Below, piece by piece: positions 9,195 through 45,240 of a stretch of DNA of 64,000 nucleotides (position 1 is the stretch's first letter; each line of letters starts with the position of its first letter). Source of the stretch: Acidobacteriota bacterium (GTDB lineage Bacteria; Acidobacteriota; UBA4820; DSQY01); assembly GCA_049967655.1 (NCBI GenBank), contig JBMFSH010000012.1, forward strand, positions 5,945-69,944. Direction: 5' to 3'. The notes under the pieces were generated by a model. It saw only the letters and a list, made by a program, of their open reading frames with translations, made no database searches and was not told the DNA's origin. The position numbers and the translations under genes were made by a program.

Positions 9195-10643
9195 TCACCT
9201 CCGTCGGCGCAGGTAGGCGAACACCCCCGCCGCTACAACCAGTCCGGGAAGGATGACGACGAAGAGGATGAAGAGGAAGTTGGACTGCGAGGCGGTCAGC
9301 GTCAGGTGCGTCTCCACCTCGGTCTTGGGAGGAATGGCCAGCCGGCTGGTCTGGGAGAGCAGCCAGTGAATGGAGTTGAGACAGAAGAGGAGGTTTCCCG
9401 CCCCCGTCTGCAAGAGCCCGTCGCTCGCCACGTCCGAGTCGCCTACCACCACCAGGCGGCACTGGTCAGCCGTGTCCTTGGAGCTCACCGCGGCGGCCAT
9501 GGTCAGGGGCCCCTGCGCGTCCGTCGGCTTTTTTTCGACGCCCTTGTCGATGTTGGCGAGATCCCGCATGCCCCACGACTGCGGCGAGGACTGCAGGAGA
9601 GCCTCGCAGTGGTAGGCCTTGTTCTGGGGGGTGCCGAGGGTGAGGGACTGGGCCAGGCTGAGGAGCACGGGCAGCTTGTTCTGGACCAGGTCCTTCACAA
9701 CAGGCTCTTCCCCCACGGCCTGGGCGAAGAAGGTCTGCGCTCCGAGGTAGGGCACCGATGCGGCCGGATCCACCGCGATGTCGTGCCCGAGCGTGATGCC
9801 CCATTCCTGGAGGGTCGTCCCCAGGCCCGTGGAGCCGAAGGTCGGCGGCTTTCCGCTCTCGATGACGGGATCCAGAAGAAAGAGGGCCTTCCCTCCCTTT
9901 TGGAGGTAGTGGTCGATAACCTGGGCCTCCTGCGGAAGGAAGGGGCTCTTGGGCCCCGCGATGACCAGCATGCTGGCGTCCGAGGGCACTTCGGTCTTGC
10001 CCAGGCTAGCCCATTCCAGGACCTTGGCGCCCTCCTTGGCGAGGCGGGCCTTCAGAAGGCTGATGCCCTCTCCTTGAGCGCCGGCGTCTCGCTCGCCGTG
10101 GCCGGTGGTGAAGTAGATCACGGGGGTCTCCGGGTGCTCCAGGCTGAAGATGGCGTTGGTGAAGGCCGCCTCGGCCTTGAAGCTCTTGATGGCGGGCTGG
10201 CCGCCGAGGCCCGCGCTGGAGAAGTCGTAATCCACCATCTGGTCCTTCTCCACGTACTTGCTTTTGCCCCCGAGGGCGAAGACCACCACGTTGGCCATGG
10301 AGACCTTGTACTGCTGGGCAAGGGCCTCCATCCTGGCGCGCTGCCGGTCGGGATCGATGGTCTCCACCTGCACCAGGGGGCTGGCGGCGGCGTAGCCGTC
10401 CAACAGGTCCTTCACCCTCTCGTACAGGGGATCGTTGGGGGCGAGAAAGACCACGACCTTGAGCGGCTCCTTGAGCTCTCCGAGCACCTTTTTGGTCTCC
10501 TGAGAAATGGTGAAGGAGCGGCTGGCCGTGAGGTCCCACCGGTGGTAGTGGCGGAAGGCCAGGTAGTTCACAATCAGGAAGAGAGCGGTCAGGAGCACCA
10601 GGAAGACGCTCCAGTTGGTCTCTTGCAGGAGTCTTTTCTTCAT
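9195..10643 (-). CDS. GldG-like ABC-transporter auxiliary component (gliding-motility-associated family)
   Basis: N- and C-terminal TM anchors flanking a large periplasmic domain; operon context with an ABC-2 permease and ATPase. Confidence 0.65.
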   Translation of the reverse strand: MKKRLLQETNWSVFLVLLTALFLIVNYLAFRHYHRWDLTASRSFTISQETKKVLGELKEPLKVVVFLAPNDPLYERVKDLLDGYAAASPLVQVETIDPDRQRARMEALAQQYKVSMANVVVFALGGKSKYVEKDQMVDYDFSSAGLGGQPAIKSFKAEAAFTNAIFSLEHPETPVIYFTTGHGERDAGAQGEGISLLKARLAKEGAKVLEWASLGKTEVPSDASMLVIAGPKSPFLPQEAQVIDHYLQKGGKALFLLDPVIESGKPPTFGSTGLGTTLQEWGITLGHDIAVDPAASVPYLGAQTFFAQAVGEEPVVKDLVQNKLPVLLSLAQSLTLGTPQNKAYHCEALLQSSPQSWGMRDLANIDKGVEKKPTDAQGPLTMAAAVSSKDTADQCRLVVVGDSDVASDGLLQTGAGNLLFCLNSIHWLLSQTSRLAIPPKTEVETHLTLTASQSNFLFILFVVILPGLVVAAGVFAYLRRRR

Positions 10644-10647
10644 GGGG

Positions 10648-11388
10648 CTATCTCCAACGCCGAGTCTGCATGGCCTGATACCCGAGGGCCAGAAAAAGAG
10701 CGGTTCCTGACAGGCAGTAGACCACCGATCGGCTGTCCACCACCCCCTTGGCGAAGCCCTGCATGATCGACCAAAGATCCACGTACTGAAGAATGGGCTT
10801 CCAGAAGGGATCGGTCACCAGGAAGGTGAGGATGGAGATCAGGATCAGCAGGAGCAGTATGGCGAAGCACAGGATGGCCGCCACCACCTGATTCTTGGAG
10901 ACCAGGCTCGTAAACAGGCCGATGGCGATGAAGAACATGCCCACCATCAGCACGCCCAGATAGCCCGAGATCACGGGGCCTGCGTCCACCTTCGAGTAGG
11001 CCGTGAGCGCCCAGACGTAAAGGACCGTGGGCAGCCAGGCCGCCGCGTAGAGAGCCATGGCGCCCAGATACTTGCCGATCACCACCTCCAGATCGGAGAC
11101 GGGAGCGGTCATGAGGGTCTCGATGGTCCCGGTCTTTCGCTCCTCGGCCCCCAGCTTCATGGTGATGACCGGGGTCATGACGATCATGAAGATCCAGAAG
11201 AAGGTGGTGCCGCCGAAGAAGAGAAGCATGGGCTGGGCCGAGAAGGCTCCGGGCTGACTCAGGGCCGCCAGGATCACGGAGAAGATGAATCCGTTCATGA
11301 GGAGGAAGGCGGCGATCACGATGTAGGCCATGGGGGCGAAGAAGTAGCTCGTCAATTCCTTCCGGGCGATGGCCATCACCGCTCTCAT
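10648..11388 (-). CDS. ABC-2 type transporter permease (GldF-like)
   Basis: six hydrophobic segments, ABC-2 family pattern. Confidence 0.7.
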   Translation of the reverse strand: MRAVMAIARKELTSYFFAPMAYIVIAAFLLMNGFIFSVILAALSQPGAFSAQPMLLFFGGTTFFWIFMIVMTPVITMKLGAEERKTGTIETLMTAPVSDLEVVIGKYLGAMALYAAAWLPTVLYVWALTAYSKVDAGPVISGYLGVLMVGMFFIAIGLFTSLVSKNQVVAAILCFAILLLLILISILTFLVTDPFWKPILQYVDLWSIMQGFAKGVVDSRSVVYCLSGTALFLALGYQAMQTRRWR

Positions 11389-12875: not shown

Positions 12876-13316
12876 TTAGCCCTTGATGGCGATACGCTTG
12901 GGTTTGGACTCCTCGGCCTTCGGGACGATGAGCTGCAAGATGCCGTCCTTGTAAGTGGCCGAGATCTTGTCGGCCTCCACTCGAGAGGGCAGGGTGAAGG
13001 AGCGCGTGAATCGGCCGTAGGCCCGCTCGATGCGATGGTAGGTCTCCTTTTGGGACTCCGCCTCGAACTTCCTTTCGCCGCGGATGGTGAGGAGGTTGTT
13101 CTCCAGGTGAACCTCGATGTCCTCCCGCTTCATGCCGGGCATGTCGGCCTCGATGACATACTGTCCCTCCTCTTCGCGCAGATCCACGGCGGGGCTCCAG
13201 GCTCCGTACTCCAATTCGGCTGACTGGGTTTTCCCGAAGTTTTCGTCGAAGAGACGGTTCAACTGATCATGCATGGTGAGCAGCTCCCGCATAGGGTTCC
13301 AACGACTGATGGCCAT
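12876..13316 (-). CDS. Hsp20/alpha-crystallin family small heat-shock protein
   Basis: alpha-crystallin domain (…PAVDLREEEGQYVIEADMPGMKREDIEV…). Confidence 0.85.
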   Translation of the reverse strand: MAISRWNPMRELLTMHDQLNRLFDENFGKTQSAELEYGAWSPAVDLREEEGQYVIEADMPGMKREDIEVHLENNLLTIRGERKFEAESQKETYHRIERAYGRFTRSFTLPSRVEADKISATYKDGILQLIVPKAEESKPKRIAIKG

Positions 13317-13360
13317 GTGTGTAACCTCCTTTCTGTGGTTCAGGATGCCGTTTCATCTGC

Positions 13361-34355: not shown

Positions 34356-34988
34356 GTGGAGCGAGGTGAGCCCGTGGCCCAAAGAGCGAAGCCCTCCGAA
34401 CCCGAACCCTCCGGCCGTACGCTGGTGGTGGCCGCCACCGGCGCCAGCGGCGCGCGCCTGGCGGTGCGCTTCCTCGGCCACCTCCTGGCCCATCCCGGCG
34501 TCGGGGCCGTGCACTTCGTGGGTTCGCGCGCCTTCGCCCTCGTGGCCTCCCGCGAGGAGGGGAGGAAGCTTCCCGAGATGCTCAAGGGGCTGACCGGGCG
34601 GGAGAAGCTGCACCTCTACCAGGAGGAGCAGCTCGACGCCTGCGTCTCCTCGGGCTCCTTCCCGGTGGACGGCACGGTCATCATTCCGGCGAGCATGTCC
34701 ACGGTGGGCGCCGTCGCCTCGGGCGCCGGCAGGACCCTCTGCCACCGCGTGGCCGAGGTGGCCCTCAAGGAGCGCCGCCCCCTCATCTTGGTCCCCCGCG
34801 AGACCCCCCTCTCCCTGATCCACCTGCGGAACCTCGCCACCCTGGCCGAGGCCGGCGCCCTCATCGCCCCCTTCATCCCCGCCTTCTACCAGAGGCCGGC
34901 CTCCGTCGAGGCCCTGATGGACCACTTCTTCATGCGCCTCTTCGACCACCTGGGCCTGCCCTCCGCCCTCTCCACGCGATGGGCCTGA
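34356..34988 (+). CDS. ubiX: flavin prenyltransferase UbiX
   Basis: flavoprotein fold typical of UbiX/Pad1. Confidence 0.8.
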   Translation: MERGEPVAQRAKPSEPEPSGRTLVVAATGASGARLAVRFLGHLLAHPGVGAVHFVGSRAFALVASREEGRKLPEMLKGLTGREKLHLYQEEQLDACVSSGSFPVDGTVIIPASMSTVGAVASGAGRTLCHRVAEVALKERRPLILVPRETPLSLIHLRNLATLAEAGALIAPFIPAFYQRPASVEALMDHFFMRLFDHLGLPSALSTRWA

Positions 34989-35860
34989 GACACTTCGGGC
35001 GGCGGCTCTGGGCCGTCCTGGACATGATCAAGGTCCACCACACCATCTTCGCCCTGCCCTTCGCCCTGCTCGCCATGCTCTGGGCCGCGCGCGGCTGGCC
35101 CTCCTGGCGGACCTTCGGCTGGATCCTTTTGGCCATGGTGGCGGCGCGCTCGGCGGCCATGACCTTCAACCGCATCGCGGACCGCCGCTACGACGTGGAG
35201 AACCCGCGCACCTCCCGCTGGCCCCTCTCCACCGGCGCCGTCTCCCTCCCCTTCGCCTGGGGCTTCCTCGCCGCGTGCGTGCTCCTGCTCCTGCTCGCCG
35301 CCTGGCGGCTCAACCCCCTCTGCCTCGCCCTGGCCCCCCTCGCCCTGGCCGTCCTCCTCGGCTACTCCCTCACCAAGCGCTTCACCGTCTTCTGCCACCT
35401 CTTCCTCGGCTTCGCCGACGGCATCTCGGCCCCCGGCGCCTGGATCGCCGTGACGGGGACCCTGCACGGCTCCGCCCCCGCCTGGTGGCTCTGCGGCGCC
35501 ATGACCGCATGGATCGGCGGCTTCGACCTCCTCTACGCCCTCCAGGACCTCGCCTTCGACCGCGAGAAGGGGCTCTACTCCTTCCCGGCGCGCTACGGCG
35601 TGCGGCCCGCCCTCCGCCTCTCCACCGCCGCCCACCTCGCCACCGTCGCCTGCCTGATCGCCGCCGGCCTCGGCGCCGGCGCCGGATGGCTCTTTTACGC
35701 CGGCGTCGCCGCCACCCTCCTCCTCCTCCTCTACGAGCACAGCCTCGTCAAGCCCGGCGACCTCAGCCGCCTCGGCAAGGCCTTTTTCACCGTCAACGGC
35801 TACATCGCCATCGGCCTCTTCCTCGTCGCCGCCGCCGATTTGTGGATGGGCAAGAGGTAG
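34979..35860 (+). CDS. ubiA: UbiA-family aromatic prenyltransferase
   Basis: NRIADRRYD and D-rich motifs, about 8 TM helices. Confidence 0.8.
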   Translation: MGLRHFGRRLWAVLDMIKVHHTIFALPFALLAMLWAARGWPSWRTFGWILLAMVAARSAAMTFNRIADRRYDVENPRTSRWPLSTGAVSLPFAWGFLAACVLLLLLAAWRLNPLCLALAPLALAVLLGYSLTKRFTVFCHLFLGFADGISAPGAWIAVTGTLHGSAPAWWLCGAMTAWIGGFDLLYALQDLAFDREKGLYSFPARYGVRPALRLSTAAHLATVACLIAAGLGAGAGWLFYAGVAATLLLLLYEHSLVKPGDLSRLGKAFFTVNGYIAIGLFLVAAADLWMGKR

Positions 35861-36329
35861 GGCAGAGGTGCGGAGGAGCAGAGGAGCAAGGTCTCCCGTT
35901 TCTGGCGCACCGTTCCCCCGTCATCCCGTGGGACACCCCCGGCAGGCCGGGCGGAGCCCGGGGGGATGGAATGCGCCGGCCGAGCTTCCCGGCCTTGTGG
36001 AACGGGTCCCCGATCTCCGGCTCCTCCTCGAAGGCGTTGTCGGCGGCGCTCATGACCTCGCTGATCCACCGCTTGGCCTCGTCGATCCTCTGGTTCACGG
36101 GGACGTTGCCCGTGCTGAAGGCGGTCTTGGCATCCGCCTGAGTCCCGAAGGCGGCGCGGATCTCCTCCAGGAGCTTCTCCAGCTCGTCCACCTTGGCCGG
36201 CGGGAACTTGTCCGCCAGCTCCTTCGCGTGCGCCCTAGCCACCGCCACCGACACGCCGCCCTGCTCGATCATCCGCTGCGCCGAGAACCTCGACCCGATG
36301 ACAACCAGCTCCTGTTCGCCGTTAGCCAT
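35793..36329 (-). CDS. hypothetical protein with low-complexity C-terminal tail
   Basis: ORF with a conserved-looking N-terminal ~110 aa; the tail overlaps the ubiA 3' end. Confidence 0.35.
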   Translation of the reverse strand: MANGEQELVVIGSRFSAQRMIEQGGVSVAVARAHAKELADKFPPAKVDELEKLLEEIRAAFGTQADAKTAFSTGNVPVNQRIDEAKRWISEVMSAADNAFEEEPEIGDPFHKAGKLGRRIPSPRAPPGLPGVSHGMTGERCARNGRPCSSAPPHLCPTSCPSTNRRRRRGRGRWRCSR

Positions 36330-36551
36330 GCGACCTTCCCCTCCACGAACGCGCCCGTTCCCCACATCCGGCGCGGCCTCACGCTCCGCCGCCCCCTTGG
36401 AACCGATGATTGGATGGCGCCGTCCTAACAGAAGGACGTCAGAAAGGCAAAGCAGACCCTCTGTCCCCCATGGCGCTCGCAGGTTTCGGAGAGAGCGAGC
36501 CCCCAGGGCGTCCTGGGGGTTCGCCCGTCCAGGGCTGCGGTGAGCAGCTCT

Positions 36552-38564
36552 TCACGGGCATCTCGTGGAATCGTAAGATTGCCCGTCGTCAATGGGCGTA
36601 TCCTTCTGATCGTGCGGAACGCCAACTCTCACGGTGCCGCTGCAAGTGCCACCCTTCCCATCGCCGGCGGTGAACGAGATGGCATACACACGCCCGTTGC
36701 CCGTCCCCGAGCGCTCGGCGCGCACCTGCGCCTGGGCAGAACCCACTCCAAAGCCGTCGGGGCACGTATCTCCGTCGCCCAAGCCATTGGTGGGCTCGTC
36801 CTGCGTGATGCCGGTGATCTGGATGGTCACCGGATCGCCGTCCGGATCGGTGACGCCCGTGATCGCGATGGAGACCAGCTTGTGGTTGGGGGGCCAGAGC
36901 AGGGCCGGGCTTGCCGAGGCCTGGCTGCAATCGGGAGGGCGGTTAGGAGGCATCACGCCGGTCGCCACTTGAAGCTGGTTCGACGCGCAATTGTTGCTTT
37001 CGTTCGTCTCGAAGACCTGGTGGTCCGCGTCCGCGCAGGCGTCGAGGTAGTAATTGCCAGCGGGCAGGTTCGGCGGAATGACGTAGGGCGCCGTTTCCAC
37101 CGAGCTCTTCTCGCCAGGGGCGAGGGCAGGGATGGCGCGTTCCCCGACGACCGTCGCGGTTGCCGGATCGACCGGACTCGAGGTCGAGAGGTAATATCGC
37201 GTGATGCTCGGGCCGGCGGGGAGAATCCCTATGTTCATCGTCGTCTCGGTAATGTAAAAGGTCTGGCCCGGGGCGGAGATGAGCAGCGGGGGAATGAAGA
37301 TTGGCACGGTGAGATCCGGTCCACCCGTCCAGGAGACCGTGACGGGTTCCGAGAAGACACCGTTGGCTGTGCAATCGGTGAGCGACTCGCCTTGTCGTCC
37401 GTGGCTCTTTCCGGTAGGTGTGCCCTTTCCTTTCGTGGCTGCGCCCTGCCGGGCGTACAACATTCCCGTGTTCGCCCGCAAGGTGTCCACACCGACCTTG
37501 GTACCTGTATACGTAAAGCTGAAGGTCCCGTCGCCCGCCGTGGTCCCGTGGGTTCCCTGGCCGCGCTGTGGGCCGTCGGTCACCTCAATGTCGACGTAGT
37601 TGTTCGCGATGGGCTGGCCGTTGGCGACATTCACCAACATGGCCGTCGCGGTATGTGGCTGGCCAATCGCATGCGTGGCTGACGCCGGTGTCAGGGTGAG
37701 CTTGGGCGCGCAGGGCCAAGGAAGATTCTGTTGCAGGTAGAGGGCGTTGTAGTACACGAGCGCGTAGCCCTCGCTCGTGCGCTGCGAGGGCGCCGCGGCC
37801 TGAGTCGCATCGATCACCGCCTGGAGCTTCGCGTTCACCATGGCTTGGTCCTGCGCTACCGCCGCTTGACGGGCGGCGGAAAGGTTGGATTGAATCGTCG
37901 AGAGCAAGGCCGCATCCGAAATCCATCCAAGCTGGCCGGCGGTGGCAACATCGCTAATGAATTCGTTCCAATGAGCAAACGAGCCTGGATCCACACCCAA
38001 GGGACCAAGGGTCTGAACTTTTCGGATATAGCTGAGATTGATCGGATCCGATTCGCTGGGGAGCAACTCCCCCCCCTCGTAGGTAGCCAATGCATCGAGG
38101 TAGGGTTGGATCCATGGGTTGATCCACGCTTCACGAATGGTGGGTGGCCGCGGCGACTGGAAGCTGAACGGACCGGCACTCGTACCAGGTGATGGCGGGT
38201 TGGGCATATCATCCCACATCGCCCAGTCCACGAAGGGCTGATTGGGCACGAGAACGAAAGGTGGTTGAGGGGGATTCGAGACAATACCTATTGGTGCCCA
38301 GCCTGCCGACGAACCGAGCGTGACGGAGGTTTCTGCCCCGCCTACGACAATCTCAAAATCCGAGAGCTCTGCGGTGTTTGAGGCTGGGTTGGTCAAGGTA
38401 TATCCGTACATGTACGAGCCTGAATTGGGATCCTCGGTGACTGCCACTTGTATGGTTATGCCTTGAAACACTGGCGGTACGGGCTGCGCCCGAAGCGCCA
38501 CCGAGAACAGAGAGACCATGAGCCAGCCCAGGCAAGCAGTACGCCCACAAAATTTTGTAACCAT
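36552..38564 (-). CDS. secreted CARDB-domain protein with conserved C-terminal LWPPNHK…LRAERSG…VPHDQ domain
   Basis: signal peptide; CARDB motif …YYLDACADADHQVFETNESNN…; lower GC than surroundings. Confidence 0.65.
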   Translation of the reverse strand: MVTKFCGRTACLGWLMVSLFSVALRAQPVPPVFQGITIQVAVTEDPNSGSYMYGYTLTNPASNTAELSDFEIVVGGAETSVTLGSSAGWAPIGIVSNPPQPPFVLVPNQPFVDWAMWDDMPNPPSPGTSAGPFSFQSPRPPTIREAWINPWIQPYLDALATYEGGELLPSESDPINLSYIRKVQTLGPLGVDPGSFAHWNEFISDVATAGQLGWISDAALLSTIQSNLSAARQAAVAQDQAMVNAKLQAVIDATQAAAPSQRTSEGYALVYYNALYLQQNLPWPCAPKLTLTPASATHAIGQPHTATAMLVNVANGQPIANNYVDIEVTDGPQRGQGTHGTTAGDGTFSFTYTGTKVGVDTLRANTGMLYARQGAATKGKGTPTGKSHGRQGESLTDCTANGVFSEPVTVSWTGGPDLTVPIFIPPLLISAPGQTFYITETTMNIGILPAGPSITRYYLSTSSPVDPATATVVGERAIPALAPGEKSSVETAPYVIPPNLPAGNYYLDACADADHQVFETNESNNCASNQLQVATGVMPPNRPPDCSQASASPALLWPPNHKLVSIAITGVTDPDGDPVTIQITGITQDEPTNGLGDGDTCPDGFGVGSAQAQVRAERSGTGNGRVYAISFTAGDGKGGTCSGTVRVGVPHDQKDTPIDDGQSYDSTRCP

Positions 38565-38789
38565 GGCTCAGCCTCCAACCAATTCATAGTGGATTTCTTG
38601 TTTTTCATAGCGAGTAAGCAGCAGGGCTGCTGCGAGGCGATTGAGAAGGTTCTCCTGAACGCGGGCTGCCGCTCCGCCCCCGATCCACGGGGCAGCAGTG
38701 GTTCACGTCGGCGGACGTGCCCACCCGGTGGAGCTCATGTGGGCAGTCCCAGTTGTCCTGGAAATCCAAAATACCCCCCCAGGGAAGGC

Positions 38790-39553
38790 TCATATCGTTG
38801 AAGGAAAGCCTGACCCACACCCCGTCATGTTGTGGTAGCTGGCCCGGTAATTCTGGGCGAGTTGCACCAGCTTTTTGGCCATCGCTGGTTTCACGTAATC
38901 ACCCACAGGATGATCCCCGGCATTACGGACAACCACGAGAGAGGGATCCGAAGGGAGTTCGACAAGCCCGTCCACGTGAAGCCGGACGCCCATTTGAGAG
39001 TAGCCCGTGCGGCCGCTGGGGTCGGAAGGGTCCACGTGCCAGCAGTCGTCAGGAACAATGTGGTAGTTAGGGGAGCGATGCACCGGGCTGTGATTCGAAC
39101 CACTCCGGAGCACTGTGGATGGTACTTGTAGCCTGTCCATATTTGTCCGCCGGTGTCGCCGGTGAAGGTGTTCGTATCCGCAACACCCGAGAGATCCGAA
39201 TACAGACCGCCCGTCGTCATGGCGACGTCGCCCGAGCGCGGGTGGACGTGACCGCCTTCGTAATACAGAATCGTGGCGGGATCTTGCAGGCCATCTGTGG
39301 AAAAGAACTCTGTCCAGTCCTCGTGGCAATTCAGCGGTAATCCGGTGTAGAGGTCGTAGCACCCTACCTGAAAGGCGTCGAAGTCAAGTGGCACTGCGCG
39401 CAGGGAGGAACACTTCCCATAAGTCTGTGGGATGGTAGGGCTTGCGTCCCACCAGTACCAGGGCAGCTCGGTTTGAGCGTATGTTCCCAGGCTCAGTACA
39501 AGAGTAAGCAGGGTAACCGTGAGAATGACCGTGGTGCCGCCGAGACGAACCAT
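38790..39553 (-). pseudogene. secreted hypothetical hydrolase-like protein, frameshifted
   Basis: coding sense switches frame near 39100-39135 between overlapping ORFs 38891..39613 and 38790..39362; strong AAGGAGG RBS before ATG 39553. Confidence 0.5.
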
Positions 39554-39724
39554 ACAAACCTCCTTTCCAGGCAACGAGCTAGTTGATGGTATGTATGGTC
39601 CCCAATTCTTCACATATCAATGGTTTCTGTGTTGAAACCCCTCCCTGTCTTACCGCCCCTCCTCCGTACAAGTCACGTCCCCCGCCCGTGGTGTGGTATG
39701 CTGAAGTCATCTCCGGAGGACTTC

Positions 39725-42634
39725 ATGACACCCATCGAGTTCATCCACAAGTGGCGGGACGCGGCGTTGTCGGAGCGCTCGGCGTGCCAGCAGCACTTTC
39801 TGGACCTGTGCGAGCTGGTGGGCCACCCGAAGCCGGCGGAGGTGGACAAGACGGGCGAGTCCTTCACCTTCGAGCGCGGCGCGGCCAAGACCGACGGCGG
39901 CGACGGCTGGGCGGACGTCTGGAAGCGGGGCTTCTTCGGCTGGGAGTACAAGGGCCGCCACGCCAACCTCGCCAAGGCCTACGGCCAGCTCCTCCAGTAC
40001 CGGGAGGCGCTGGAGAACCCGCCCCTGCTCGTGGTGTGCGACATGGACCGCCTGGAGATCCACACCAACTTCACGGGGACGCGCACCGAGGTCCACGCGC
40101 TGCGCCTCGTGGAGCTGGACATGCCCCGCAGCCGGGAGATTCTGCACGCCCTCTTCTTCGACCCGGAGAAGCTCCGCCCCGGCGCCACCAGCGCCTCCAT
40201 CACCACCGAGGCCGCCGCCCACATCGGCGAGATCGCCCAGCGCCTGCGCGCCCGAGGCGAGCAGCCGGCCCAGGTGGCGCGCTTCCTCGACCGCCTCGTC
40301 TTCTGCCTCTTCGCCGAGGACATCGGCCTGCTGCCCGAGGCGCTCTTCTCGCGCCTCCTCCACAAGACCCGGGACGATCCGCCCCGCTTCCAGAAGCTCG
40401 TCTCGGACCTCTTCGAGGCCATGGCCAAGGGCGGCGATTTCGGCATGGACACGATCCGCTGGTTCAACGGCTCGCTCTTCGCCCACGGGCCCGTCCTGCC
40501 GCTGGAGGAGGGGGAGCTGGCCATCCTCGACCGGGCCGCCGCCCTGGACTGGAGCGCCGTGGACGCCTCCATCTTCGGCACCCTCTTCGAGCGGGGCCTC
40601 GACCCGGACAAGCGCTCCCAGCTCGGCGCCCACTACACGAGCCGCGCCGACATCGAGGCCCTGGTGGAGCCCGTGGTCATGGCGCCCCTTCGCCGCCGCT
40701 GGCAGGAGGTGCGCGCGCGGGCCGAGGAGGCCCTGGCGGCCCTCGACCGCCGGCCGGGCCGCAAGGCCCTCACGCCGCAGGCCGCCGCGCGCATCCGCGA
40801 CAGGGCCTCGGGCATCGCGGGCGCCTTCCTCTTCGAGCTGCACACCCTCACCGTCCTGGACCCGGCCTGCGGCTCGGGCAACTTCCTCTACGTGACGCTC
40901 CAGAAGCTCAAGGACCTGGAGAAGGAGGTCGGCGTCTGGGCCGTGGGGCGAGGGCTCGGTCAGTTCCTGCCCATGGTCCACCCGCACCAGCTCTACGGCA
41001 TCGAGGTGAACCCCTACGCCCACGAGCTGGCCTAGATGACCGTCTGGATCGGCTACCTCCAGTGGATCAGCGCCAACGGCTTCGGCCTGCCCCACGACCC
41101 CGTCCTCGAATCGCTGGAGCGCCACTTCCTCTGCCGCGACGCCATCCTCGACCTGGGCGACCCGGATCATCCGAAGGAGCCCGAGTGGCCCGAGGCCGAC
41201 TGCATCGTCGGCAACCCGCCCTTCCTGGGGGGGAAGATCCTGAGGCGCGAGCTGGGCGATTCGTACGTGGACCGGCTCTTCGCCCTGTGGGACGGCCGCG
41301 TGCCGCGCGAGGCCGACCTGTGCGCCTACTGGTTCGAGAAGGCGAGGGACCAGGTGGAGGCGGGGCGCTGCCGGCGCGCCGACCTGCTCGCCACCCAGGG
41401 CATCCGCGGCGGGGCCAACCGCAAGGTCCTGGAGCGGATCAAAGAGACGGGCGAGATCTTCTTCGCCGAGAGCGACCGCCCGTGGATCCTCGACGGCGCC
41501 AACGTCCACGTCAGCATGGTGGGCTTCGACCGGGGGGAGGAGACGGCGCGCCTCCTGGACGGAAAGGCCGTGCCGGTGATCCACGCCAACCTCACCGCCG
41601 CGGCGGACACCACCCAGGCGGCGCGGCTTCCCGAGAACCGGGGCCTCGCCTACATGGGCGACACCAAGAGGGGGCCCTTCGATATTCCCGAGGCCCGCGC
41701 CCTCGACTGGCTTCAGAGGCCCAACCCGCACGGGCGACCCAACTCGGACGTGGTCGTGCCCTGGGTCAACGGCTTGGACGTGACGGGCCGGCCGCGCTCC
41801 CTGTGGATCGTGGACTTCGGCGCGGCGATTGCCGAGGAGGCTGCGGCCCGGTACGAGGCTCCCTTCGAGTACGTGCGCGAGCGGGTGAAACCGGAACGGG
41901 ATAAGTCGCGAAGTACGGTTGGGATTTGGTGGCAACATGAACGAGCCAGGCTGGACATGCGGGAGGCGTTGGCGAACGTGCCGCGCTTCCTGTCCACGGT
42001 GGCCGTCTCCAAGCATCGGCTCTTCACCTGGATGCGATCGCCCACATTGCCGGACCACCAGGTCTTCGCCTTTGCCGGCTCGGACGACTATCTCTTCGCC
42101 CTCCTCCACTCGCGCTTCCACGAGGCGTGGGCGCTGAAGTTGGGCACGCGGTTGGAGACAAGGCCCCGCTACACCCCCACGACCTGCTTCGAGACCTTCC
42201 CCTTCCCCTGGCCGCCGGGACACGAGCCGGCGGAGGACCCGCGCGTGCGGGCCATCGCCGACGCCGCCCGGGAGCTGAACCGCCTCCGGGAGGGCTGGCT
42301 CAACCCGCCCGAGTGGACGCGGGAGGAGATCCTCACCTTCCCCGGCTCCGCGGAGGGCCCCTGGGGCCGCTTCGTCACGGAGCCCGACGCGCGCGGCATC
42401 GGCACCGTCCGCTACCCCCGTCTCGTCCCCAGGGACGAGGCCAGCGCCGTGGCCCTCAAGGCCCGCACCCTCACCGGCCTCTACAACCAGCGCCCCACTT
42501 GGCTCGCCAACGCGCACCAAACCCTCGACGCCGCCGTCGCCGCCGCCTACGCCTGGCCCCCCGACCTCCCCGACGAGCAGATCCTCCAACGCCTCCTCGC
42601 CCTCAACCGCGAGAGGGCGGGGAAGAGTGTTTAG
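39725..42634 (+). pseudogene. MmeI-family Type IIL restriction-modification enzyme, interrupted by in-frame TAG at 41033-41035
   Basis: N-terminal nuclease motif D-x9-EYK (DVWKRGFFGWEYKG), MTase motif I VLDPACGSGNFL (ORF1), motif IV IVGNPPFLGG (ORF2); ORF1 39620..41035 and ORF2 41036..42634 are in the same frame; alternative start 39698. Confidence 0.7.
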
Positions 42635-42708
42635 TTATCCGTTAGCAGCGAGGCACTAGCCGCCGGGTCGAAAAGGTTGGGAGCAATTGCTGCTTAGAGG
42701 AGGGTCCT

Positions 42709-43404
42709 ATGGCACTGAGGGTTAAGAGAAGAACAGTATCCGATTTCGTTAGGCGAAAGGTCATTCACCTCGCGGGCAACCGGTGCTCGTTTTGCCCGGA
42801 GGACGACGTTAGCATCCTGCAACCGCACCACCTCACCGCTGTTTCCGAGGGCGGTTCCGACGACTGGGAGAACTAGATCGCAGTGTGTCCAACCTGCCAC
42901 GAAAAGATCCACAGGGGAACGATATCTACTGCTGAGGCCCTTGCCAGAAAGGCCCTGCAGCCGGTGCCGTCAACTCGCCGCGAGCAAAGCAAGGGCACGG
43001 CGCCTATCGTGGAGATCCAAGGCGACTTGCATCAAAGCACGGTGGCTGTGGGTGCCACCGTGAACATCCGGACCAGTGGTCGAGGGAAGCCGAAGCTACT
43101 GCCGGCACCGGACTCCCTGGGGGCAGCGCCCTGTAAGCTTCGATATTGCCGCTATCTAGTCGACAGATACCATGAATTCAAGCGATCAGAAGTGGGAAAG
43201 GACCAGATAAACTACGCGATTCTCCACGGTTCCATCAAGAGGGAATTCAAGGCCGCCCTTCCGAACATTCCGGCGCACCGCTTCGAAGATGTAGCGGAGT
43301 ATCTGCAAGGCAGAATCCTAAAGAGCAAGGTTGGCCGCAATCTCAACGCTAAAGGGCAGAAAGTGTTTGAGGACTTCGAGGAATTCCGTCAAAGGCACTG
43401 CTGA
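42709..43404 (+). pseudogene. HNH endonuclease with C-terminal domain of unknown function, in-frame TAG at 42874-42876
   Basis: CSFCPEDD…HHLTAVSEGGSDDWEN*IAVCPTCHEKIH is a textbook HNH motif broken at the conserved Leu position; GGAGGG RBS; lower GC. Confidence 0.6.
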
Positions 43405-43890
43405 CCGCGGCGACGGCCTGGGGTGGCCCCGTATGGTGCATCTCGCCCGCCCCGCAGGGGCGGCATGCGTCCCGACGCCGGTGGGCCTTATGTGAGGAAG
43501 GTGAGGTGACCACACCGCGAGCGTACTCAAGGTACGCTGAGGATGTGGGCGCCGACGCCTGACGACACAGAAGGTCCGCCGCCGTCGGCGCACTCTTCGA
43601 GGGGGTGGGGACGGTCCTTCGAAGGCACGAGAGCCGGCCGCCCGAAGGGCGTGCCAGGACGCGCGCGGCGGCGGGGAGGAAGGCGCGGGGGCAGGAGATG
43701 CCGAGACCCCGAGTCAGGAAACCGCTGGAGGAGGCCACGGGGTGACGCTCCATGCTGGAGCGCCTTTCGCCCCGGTGGCGCCGCGTCTTGGCCAGGGCGC
43801 CGGAGGCGCCCGGCGGCTCGCCGCGGTGAGGCGGGAGCCCCTTTGACGCATCGCGCCGGGGAGGGCTCCTGCGAGGCGCCGGCGAGGGGC

Positions 43891-45240
43891 CTACCGCTCG
43901 AGCTTGCCCTTGAGGACGCCGGCGGCGACGAGGAGCGGGTCCCAGACGGGGGCGAAGGGCGGCGCGTAGGCGAGGTCGAGCATGGAGAGCTCCTCCACCT
44001 TCATCCCGCAGGTCAGCGCGGCGGCGAGGGTGTCGACGCGCCCCTTGGTCCCCTCCGGGCCGCAGACCTGCCCGCCCAGCAGGCGCCCGCGCCGGTCGGC
44101 GGTGAGGTGAACGAGGACGCCGCCACCGCCGGGGTAGTAACCCGCGCGGCTGCCCGCTTCGATCCAGGCCTCAACGGGGTCGAAGCCCGCCTCCCGGGCC
44201 TGGGCCGGGTCCAAACCGGTGACGCCCACCTCCAGGCCGAAGGCCCGCGTGATAGCCGTGCCCACCACGCCGGGAAAGCGCTCGCGCCCGCCGGCGATGT
44301 TGGTGCCCGCCACCCGGCCCATCTTGTTGGCCGTCGTGCCCAGGGGGATGTAGACGGGCCGGCCCGTCACCAGGTGGCGGACCTCGCAGCAGTCCCCCGC
44401 CGCCCAGACGCCGTGCACCCCCGTGGCGCAGGTCTCGTCCACCTGGATGGCGCCGTTTCGGGCCAGCGGGACCGGCGAGCCGCGCAGGAAATCGGTGGCG
44501 GGCCTCACCCCCGTGGCGATGAGGAAGAGGTCGGCGGCGAGCTCGCCCCGGTCGGTGCGCAGGGCCAGGAGGCGGCCGTTCGCGCCCAGCGCCTCCAGCA
44601 CCTGTGTCTCCAAGAGGAGGCGGACGCCGCGCTCCTCCAGCTCCCGCAGGAGGCGGTCGCGCAGCGGCTCCACCAGGTTCTTGAGGAGGCGCGTGGAGCG
44701 GTTGATGAGGGTCACCGCCATGCCTCGGGCGGCGAAGTTCTCGGCCATCTCCAGGGCGATGTAGCCCGTGCCCCAGATGAGCGCCGAGCGGGGGCGGACC
44801 GCCTCGATGAAGGTGGTGAGGCGGCGGCCGTCGGGCAGGTCGTGGAGCGTGAAGAGGTTGTCGCCCGAAAGGCCGCGCAGATCGGGCAGCACCGGTGTGC
44901 TCCCCGTGCTGATGAGGAGGGCGTCGTAGTCCTCCTCGGCGGTCCGGCCGGAGGCCAGGTCCTCCACGCGGACCCGCTTCTTGCCCTCCATGAGCTCCAC
45001 GACTCGCTGGCGCAGGCGCACCTCGATGCCGCGCCGCTGGATCTCCTCGGGGTCCAGGGCGCTCAGGTCGTCGAAGCTCGGCGTGATGCCCCCCACCACG
45101 TAGGGCAGGCCGCAGGCGCCGTAGGAGAGGTCGGGCCCCGCCTCGAGGACGGTGGCCTCCCACTCGGGCCGCATCCGCCGGAGCTTGCTTGCCGCGCTCA
45201 TGCCAGCCGCCATTCCCCCGATCACGAGCAATTTGGGCAT
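43891..45240 (-). CDS. FAD-dependent pyridine nucleotide-disulfide oxidoreductase (CoA-disulfide reductase/NADH oxidase family)
   Basis: GGMAAG FAD motif, NAD motif, C-terminal dimerisation domain. Confidence 0.75.
   Translation of the reverse strand: MPKLLVIGGMAAGMSAASKLRRMRPEWEATVLEAGPDLSYGACGLPYVVGGITPSFDDLSALDPEEIQRRGIEVRLRQRVVELMEGKKRVRVEDLASGRTAEEDYDALLISTGSTPVLPDLRGLSGDNLFTLHDLPDGRRLTTFIEAVRPRSALIWGTGYIALEMAENFAARGMAVTLINRSTRLLKNLVEPLRDRLLRELEERGVRLLLETQVLEALGANGRLLALRTDRGELAADLFLIATGVRPATDFLRGSPVPLARNGAIQVDETCATGVHGVWAAGDCCEVRHLVTGRPVYIPLGTTANKMGRVAGTNIAGGRERFPGVVGTAITRAFGLEVGVTGLDPAQAREAGFDPVEAWIEAGSRAGYYPGGGGVLVHLTADRRGRLLGGQVCGPEGTKGRVDTLAAALTCGMKVEELSMLDLAYAPPFAPVWDPLLVAAGVLKGKLER

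Follow-up and report, generated by a model that had tools for sequence, protein, structure and literature searches.

What kind of DNA lies between two conserved genes in the middle of a 64,000-nucleotide stretch of an Acidobacteriota genome (GenBank assembly GCA_049967655.1, contig JBMFSH010000012.1, positions 5,945 to 69,944; hereafter the window), and are the broken genes within it a product of evolution or of assembly? The source lineage is Thermoanaerobaculia-like Acidobacteriota. A preliminary description, made from the window alone, read the region as one decaying, horizontally acquired island with defense and surface functions. By comparing the locus with its counterparts in related genomes, we find instead a small islet composed of separately exchanging modules: a truncated small gene, a gene pair encoding a peptidase-like protein and a secreted protein with a CARDB domain, an MmeI-family restriction-modification gene, and an HNH nuclease gene. 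Four of these five genes are damaged in the window, and the damage probably reflects recent gene decay that is private to this genome.

An insertion between two convergent core genes

The left boundary is a ubiA-type prenyltransferase gene recognized from its open reading frame (ORF) translation (34979-35860, plus strand). The right boundary is a gene for a CoA-disulfide-reductase-like (CoADR-like) pyridine-nucleotide oxidoreductase (43891-45240, minus strand), whose orthologue matches the Pfam families Pyr_redox_2 and Pyr_redox_dim. The CoADR-like gene served as the synteny anchor and was searched for in GTDB species genomes. In seven Acidobacteriota/Thermoanaerobaculia metagenome-assembled genomes (MAGs; L006-L009, L013, L014 and L016), which align to the window with 70-77% nucleotide identity, the 3' ends of the two genes are 55-120 bp apart, and position 43900 is joined directly to position 35820. 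Since the core flanks are adjacent in these deeper relatives, synteny identifies the segment from about 35.87 to 43.89 kb, roughly 8 kb, as DNA inserted between two convergent core genes; the preliminary description had named this comparison as the way to define the insertion.

What occupies the site differs among closer relatives. In the flanks, four sibling lineages have diverged from the window to a similar extent (87-95% nucleotide identity), and the cargo is different in each. At this site, L003 carries a gene for a 579-amino-acid secreted protein, a DUF3124 gene and an MgtE-like gene; in L004 the small gene is intact and is accompanied by two low-GC genes; and L005 retains only C-terminal remnants of an MmeI gene, which abut ubiA. 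L083 and L095 carry the islet of the window with all genes intact and a DUF3800 gene replacing the HNH gene. The HNH gene itself is intact, with TTG at the position of interest, between the MmeI and CoADR-like genes in L084-L087, which come from four samples.

The islet core is 96.5-98% identical to L083 at the nucleotide level, compared to 87-93% for the flanks. Synonymous divergence (dS) from L083 is 0.06-0.10 in the core (0.10 for CARDB codons 101-670, 0.09 for codons 1-225 of the peptidase-like partner gene, and 0.06 for MmeI residues 1-518) and 0.20-0.30 in the flanking genes. Because the core is much less diverged than its surroundings, the islet must have been shared after the lineages split. 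Together with the insertion, the variable cargo and the presence of one of its modules at an unrelated locus elsewhere, this supports the earlier suggestion that the islet is horizontally acquired accessory DNA. The preliminary description had held that intact copies of these genes in relatives, at an identical locus and with matching GC, would speak against an acquired, decaying island. Relatives with such copies exist (L083/L095 and L084-L087), and since they share the locus, comparison indicates that other genomes have the acquisition too and that only the lesions are private.

In agreement with what had been noted for the edges of the region, there are no tRNA genes in the 64-kb window, no integrase or recombinase among its ORFs, and no meaningful flanking repeats: a repeat search of 35.5-44.2 kb returned short, chance-like repeats and no pair resembling attachment (att) sites. 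An Rfam search of 35-45 kb (E<=1) gave no match, and a promoter and terminator scan found nothing exceeding shuffled sequence. The hallmarks of a classical integrase-borne genomic island (an integrase, a tRNA or tmRNA target, and direct repeats) are therefore lacking; those of an islet at a core-gene hotspot, namely flanks that are adjacent in relatives and cargo that differs among close relatives, are both present.

Modules that exchange independently

The islet is not one island; it is made up of at least three modules that are exchanged separately from one another. One of these is a low-GC two-gene cassette (36485-39503, minus strand) that encodes the peptidase-like and CARDB proteins and moves as a unit. 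It is 89% identical at the nucleotide level to a cassette in L093 (2056-5076) and L094, where it lies in an unrelated context between tRNA-synthetase/PEMT and adh_short/FBA genes and where the partner gene is intact (328 amino acids). The pairing of the two genes is kept in L001, L002, L083 and L088-L091. Contigs with the cassette are labelled Acidobacteriota and Nitrospiraceae, one of them coming from a Nitrospiraceae genome, and the CARDB component is also found in proteins labelled Sulfuricella and Acidiferrobacterales. In L090 and L091, the cassette is set among toxin-antitoxin and SIR2-like genes.

The CARDB gene (36552-38564, minus strand) is the one intact gene of the islet. Its 670-residue product, a secreted protein with Ig-like character, has a signal-peptide-like N-terminus, matches CARDB (PF07705) with 38 bits against a cut-off of 22.7, matches Big_1 and Big_9 below threshold, and is 100% identical to NCBI protein MGC8723506.1 from an Acidobacteriota MAG. 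The orthologues in L083 and L093 also have 670 residues. Identity drops in a patch at 38281-38680 (minus strand) that spans the junction of the two genes, from the 3' end of the partner gene through the first ~100 CARDB codons: here it is 72-76% in every pair of strains, compared to 96-98% around it. Diversifying selection on the CARDB N-terminus was considered and rejected. In the patch dS is 0.9, a nine-fold rise over the 0.10 of the remaining CARDB gene, while dN/dS (the ratio of nonsynonymous to synonymous divergence) is about 0.2 in both; this combination indicates that the patch consists of divergent alleles imported by recombination.

The second module is the MmeI-family type IIL (IIG) restriction-modification gene (39725-42634, plus strand). 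An ORF start at 39620 is also possible; NCBI fragment P0221 (436 amino acids) is consistent with the start at 39725. Enzymes of this family cleave ~20/18 nucleotides from their site and protect it by N6-methyladenine on a single strand. The Pfam families MmeI_N, MmeI_hel, MmeI_Mtase, MmeI_TRD and MmeI_C all match the gene, split across an in-frame TAG and with MmeI_C below its cut-off (21.7 bits against 27), and the orthologue P0096 matches the PADLOC model REase_MTase_IIG at 2e-266. The N-terminal ORF contains a D-X9-EXK motif of PD-(D/E)XK nucleases, 'ADVWKRGFFGWEYK', and the motifs of gamma-class N6-adenine methyltransferases follow in order: GAHYTS (X), VLDPACGSGNFL (I) and GNPPF (IV). MmeI itself has D-X9-EXK (VD70-X9-E80MK82), GAHYTS, DPACGxGNFL and GNPPF (PMC2582602). 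The window gene thus resembles MmeI (Morgan et al. 2008, PMC2582602; family PMC2731913; structure PMC4833311) in its five Pfam domains, its motifs and its length of ~970-1000 residues; it differs in being interrupted between motifs I and IV and in a recognition segment that varies among sibling strains, so that its specificity is probably different.

This varying segment comprises the C-terminal half of the methyltransferase and the target recognition domain (41174-42235, plus strand; residues 519-872). Identity to intact orthologues is 83% for the whole protein and 97-100% for the N-terminal 518 residues. Relative to L083 (7656-8312) and L095, it falls to 39-82% within the segment and returns to 93-95% after it, and the stretch 41529-42170 does not align at all with L083 at the nucleotide level. 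The L085 segment is 88% identical to the window type. The partial MmeI genes of L084 and L086 differ from both the window and the L083/L095 types over the part that they cover, and the L005 remnant is of the window type (80% amino acid identity over 65 residues). L083 and L085 come from one sample, ERZ27236874, and differ in this segment. These comparisons suggest recombinational switching of restriction specificity among sibling strains.

Downstream of MmeI is a third exchangeable position. The window has the HNH gene here (42709-43404, plus strand), and L083 (8895-9686) and L095 (3823-4614) have DUF3800. The HNH gene has low GC and encodes a nuclease with a helical C-terminal domain; Pfam HNH matches its N-terminal piece.

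The remainder of the insertion, 43405-43890, is a 486-bp stretch with a GC of 0.73-0.76 and without a convincing gene. It is homologous in L005, L083 and L084-L086 (85-90% identity), is absent from L003, L004 and more distant relatives, and has no Rfam match. It may be a gene remnant or an uncharacterized element.

Base composition

The composite structure explains the GC mosaic of the locus. The window has a mean GC of 0.672 (standard deviation 0.045). A profile computed in 400-bp windows has two GC troughs, one of 0.55-0.60 at 37.8-39.8 kb and one of 0.55-0.61 at 42.6-43.4 kb. The first is preceded by a shoulder (36.4-37.8 kb, 0.62-0.66), and the flanks adjoining the islet have 0.70-0.76. 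The low-GC stretches that had been pointed out are real, with the correction that the original figure of 50-57% was too low for a measured range of 0.55-0.66. GC at third codon positions (GC3) is 0.73 in the CARDB gene, 0.66 and 0.80 in the two segments of the partner gene read in the coding frame, and 0.65-0.69 in the HNH gene. The CARDB pair and the HNH gene are therefore atypical (0.65-0.80) compared to six host genes (UbiX, UbiA, CoADR, Kdo kinase-like, rpoA and RarA; 0.90-0.97). The MmeI gene, at 0.87-0.97, is host-like, as the preliminary description had stated. Relatives carrying the islet (L083-type and L084-L087) show the same mosaic.

Three compositional features elsewhere in the window are unrelated to the islet. 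The GC minimum of the whole window (0.50-0.56) is at 13.0-13.4 kb in an Hsp20 gene (12876-13352, minus strand) and reaches just past the 5' end of that gene, and a second low-GC spot (0.58) lies at 10400-10700. Strongly negative GC and AT skews at 33-36 kb fall outside the islet and are explained by plus-strand genes for hydrophobic, probably membrane, proteins.

Lesions in four of the five genes

The preliminary description reported three disrupted genes, all of which we find disrupted, and missed a fourth. This is the small gene of unknown function next to ubiA (35973-36330, minus strand), of which the first ~119 codons are left and the 3' half is deleted. It is 94-96% identical at the nucleotide level to L083 (1994-2399) and L004 (13912-14316), where the intact gene encodes 245 and 285 amino acids, respectively; at the protein level identity ends after '...HKAGKLGR'. 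No Pfam or PADLOC family matches it. The segment between ubiA and this gene (35861-35972) appears to be a junction or deletion scar: the match to L003 and L005 runs out at 35866-35868 and that to L004 at 35943, about 35 bp lack a counterpart, and L004 has 896 bp extra here.

The partner gene of the cassette (38566-39553, minus strand) had been described as a frameshifted hydrolase-like gene at 38790-39553. It is indeed disrupted, but it is longer than that and contains three 1-bp indels rather than one: a deletion at ~39069 (C6 > C4T), a deletion at ~38821 (G5 > G4) and an insertion at 38682. The frame changes are seen in three-frame translation, and tblastn with the intact 336-residue protein of L001 matches three frames. 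In a nucleotide alignment with the four relatives used to place them (L083, L093, L094 and L095), all three indels are private to the window; the intact ORF of L083 has 348 codons. A run of seven G at 38774-38780, in frame and common to L093 (L083 has GGGGAGG instead), may be prone to slippage and is unmutated here.

The amber codon reported in the restriction-modification gene is present at 41033-41035, between motif I and motif IV, with NPPF downstream of it. It replaces a near-invariant Gln encoded by CAG in the orthologue (CAG>TAG). L092 and the nine homologues in the alignment all read through this position, and homologues are single chains of ~950-1050 residues (984/1012 in L083, with CAG). 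The window gene, in contrast, does not encode a single uninterrupted polypeptide. The second reported amber codon, at 42874-42876 in the HNH gene, replaces a Leu that is encoded by TTG in the sole close homologue, the intact 231-residue P0216 (TTG>TAG). These lesions are absent from the orthologues in L083, L093-L095 and L084-L087, which are all intact.

Could the MmeI gene still be functional in two parts? An in-frame ATG at 41036 directly follows the stop codon (TAGATG), and every catalytic motif is intact on one half or the other, so that translation might restart and the two polypeptides reassemble into a working enzyme. However, the break falls within the methyltransferase fold, between motifs I and IV; all of the homologues examined are unbroken; no Shine-Dalgarno-like sequence is visible 5' of the ATG; and the neighboring genes are damaged too, consistent with general decay. 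We consider a split enzyme very improbable.

Programmed recoding, by which TAG would be read through or reassigned and the frameshifts would be programmed or phase-variable, seems to us more improbable still. The in-frame TAG codons in two adjacent genes and the position of two indels within short G/C runs are what such a scheme might produce. But the positions of the TAG codons are occupied by ordinary sense codons in relatives, the runs are only 4-6 nucleotides long, the shifts in the partner gene do not compensate one another (net -1, frames 2>1>0>1), and, as noted above, the window contains no tRNA gene. A TAG-reassigned genetic code is ruled out by stop-codon usage, as TAG terminates 20 of the 50 coding-like ORFs in the window, core genes included.

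True decay or assembly error

A more serious alternative, raised already in the preliminary description, is that the five point lesions (three indels and two amber codons) are assembly or consensus errors caused by low coverage, strain mixing, or homopolymer or modification miscalls, and that the islet is intact in the organism. We regard this as unlikely, chiefly on account of the clean flanks: in an alignment of ~25 kb of islet flank with four relatives, there is no frameshifting indel inside genes, which upholds the clustering of lesions as real. Under a uniform error rate, the estimated probability of three indels in 1 kb is <1e-3. Within the islet, all three indels fall in the 1-kb partner gene, and the ~3.9 kb of CARDB and N-terminal MmeI sequence is free of them. 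That real decay occurs at this locus is shown by the small gene, which has lost its 3' half, and by the remnant of MmeI in L005. Other pairs of adjacent ORFs in the same frame in the window are separate, complete genes.

Several observations weigh on the other side. The five point lesions are calls from the assembled sequence. Two of the three indels lie in or next to G/C runs of 5-6 nucleotides (G5 and C6), which are error-prone in some sequencing chemistries. Strains with alternative cargo coexist in a single sample (L083 and L085), so that coverage of the islet could be lower or mixed. Exact-protein look-ups with the window CARDB protein and P0001 returned no contig, and a metagenome scan for a near-identical copy of the sequence at the MmeI amber codon turned up nothing closer than a distant homologue, which has CAG. 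The two amber codons share the hexamer context CTAGAT (41032-41037 and 42873-42878), which has no other plus-strand copy in the 64 kb. This is a mild coincidence (estimated p~0.02) and a possible sign of a systematic artifact. A miscall specific to CTAGAT is nevertheless unlikely, as 62 precursor-like hexamers elsewhere in the window (35 CCAGAT and 27 CTTGAT) are unchanged. One amber lesion is a C>T change and the other T>A; that they arrive at the same hexamer is probably coincidence. The tetranucleotide CTAG is strongly avoided in the window, with 22 copies observed compared to 114 expected.

Substitution patterns bear on both readings. Pairwise dN/dS against intact orthologues is 0.05-0.26, similar to the flanks (0.05-0.11 for MmeI residues 1-518, 0.20 for CARDB and 0.21 for the partner gene). 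This gives no sign of long-term relaxation, as expected if the lesions are errors; if they are genuine, the low ratios imply that they are recent. Three indels in a gene with a dN/dS of 0.21 require either very recent decay or a fast rate of indel formation in short runs. In the partner gene, the window branch has 8 nonsynonymous and 5 synonymous changes, compared to 17 and 31 on the L083 branch; these small counts are suggestive of relaxed constraint. We estimate that ~0.5-3% neutral divergence under relaxed selection would be enough for all of the lesions. Taking these points together, we favor real, recent and private pseudogenisation of the islet genes as the likely explanation, in keeping with the decay in this genome that was first proposed.

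Candidate functions of the islet proteins

The label "defense and surface" holds in part. Defense fits the MmeI and HNH genes; the CARDB pair has no defense annotation. The partner gene encodes a secreted, LAS/M74-like peptidase-like protein whose family conserves D(L/M)SLPxGG...HxxHRxGxxxD...H. H296, D303 and H342 are invariant in a five-sequence alignment and are plausibly zinc ligands; we take the H-x6-D motif with its distal His to be the LAS arrangement. In this motif the family resembles MepA, a penicillin-insensitive murein endopeptidase and LAS-type zinc peptidase (Peptidase_M74). In contrast to MepA, the window and L083 proteins have a long unrelated N-terminal region, and the protein is always paired with a CARDB protein. 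Only a distant Nitrospiraceae homologue in L088 matches Peptidase_M74 (8.9e-6); in a Pfam search, the window, L083, L001 and L090 partner proteins had no match, including to this family, and PDB sequence and profile searches with the partner protein (window/L083) found none. A single-sequence AlphaFold2 model of the frame-corrected protein was unusable (predicted local distance difference test score, pLDDT, 33). Given the conserved motif and the match of the distant homologue, the original "hydrolase-like" label is plausible if weakly supported.

The HNH protein contains the motif CxxC...HH...N...CxxCH and its family counts 143 representatives (E<1e-10). An AlphaFold2 model of the intact homologue, built from 59 sequences, has a pLDDT of 90, and its HNH domain resembles EcoKMcrA, ScoMcrA, Cap5 and IscB. 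McrA is a type IV restriction enzyme and Cap5 an effector of CBASS (cyclic oligonucleotide-based antiphage signaling systems). Unlike these, the HNH protein lacks any known sensor domain, such as SAVED or SRA. Its C-terminal helical domain of ~100 residues (P0216 ~130-231) is covered by none of the Pfam, NCBIfam and PADLOC models, and structural comparison found nothing specific for it. The same type of helical domain is found behind Mrr (Mrr_cat), TIR/ThsB-like, Cap5-like HNH and N6-methylase domains. Since such effector swapping is the pattern of single-gene anti-phage systems, the domain may be a new defense-associated sensor. A defense role is further supported by one family member that is encoded beside SIR2_2 and DUF3800 (L096 3007-3861) genes. 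That the HNH protein and the peptidase-like/CARDB pair are both undescribed functional units is a tentative proposal, which we think somewhat doubtful.

Probable turnover and decay at a recombination hotspot

We propose that the region from ~35.87 to 43.89 kb is a composite islet at a recombination or gene-flux hotspot between the convergent ubiA and CoADR-like genes, and we consider this account as a whole to be probable. Under this model, the small gene, the 3-kb cassette, the MmeI gene and the HNH-or-DUF3800 slot would be exchanged separately among strains, and the methyltransferase and recognition segment of MmeI would itself be swapped. Exchange presumably occurs by homologous recombination through the conserved flanks; this mechanism is inferred, and the lack of an integrase, tRNA and repeats is a point against it. 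Selection on the islet may have been relaxed recently in this genome. Private inactivations in four of the five genes would then have followed: three 1-bp indels, CAG>TAG, TTG>TAG and a 3' deletion. The MmeI amber codon would remove catalysis and DNA recognition together, and a fused enzyme of this kind could therefore be lost without self-restriction.

The islet shares several features with defense islands and integration hotspots, including conserved core flanks, cargo that differs in close relatives, restriction and nuclease genes, atypical GC, pseudogenes and remnants. It differs from them in lacking an integrase, tRNA, transposase and att-like repeats and in its size of only ~8 kb, and from defense islands in that half of its cargo, the CARDB pair, has no defense annotation. 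It is a case of ordinary accessory-gene turnover.

For annotation, the lesson of this locus is that a GC mosaic can reflect separate modules and not one island, and its five point lesions are flagged as a caution before MAG pseudogene calls are trusted. It also yields candidates for defense or surface functions in the HNH protein with its helical domain and in the pair of peptidase-like and CARDB proteins. Although it carries little weight alone, the islet is a small, clear example of accessory DNA turnover in an uncultured Acidobacteriota lineage: the cargo of a single intergenic hotspot changes from one sibling lineage to the next, modules have been exchanged more recently than the chromosomes diverged, and genes that are not needed appear to be lost fast. 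Through the shuffling of MmeI recognition segments, each of the co-occurring strains probably has a restriction specificity of its own.

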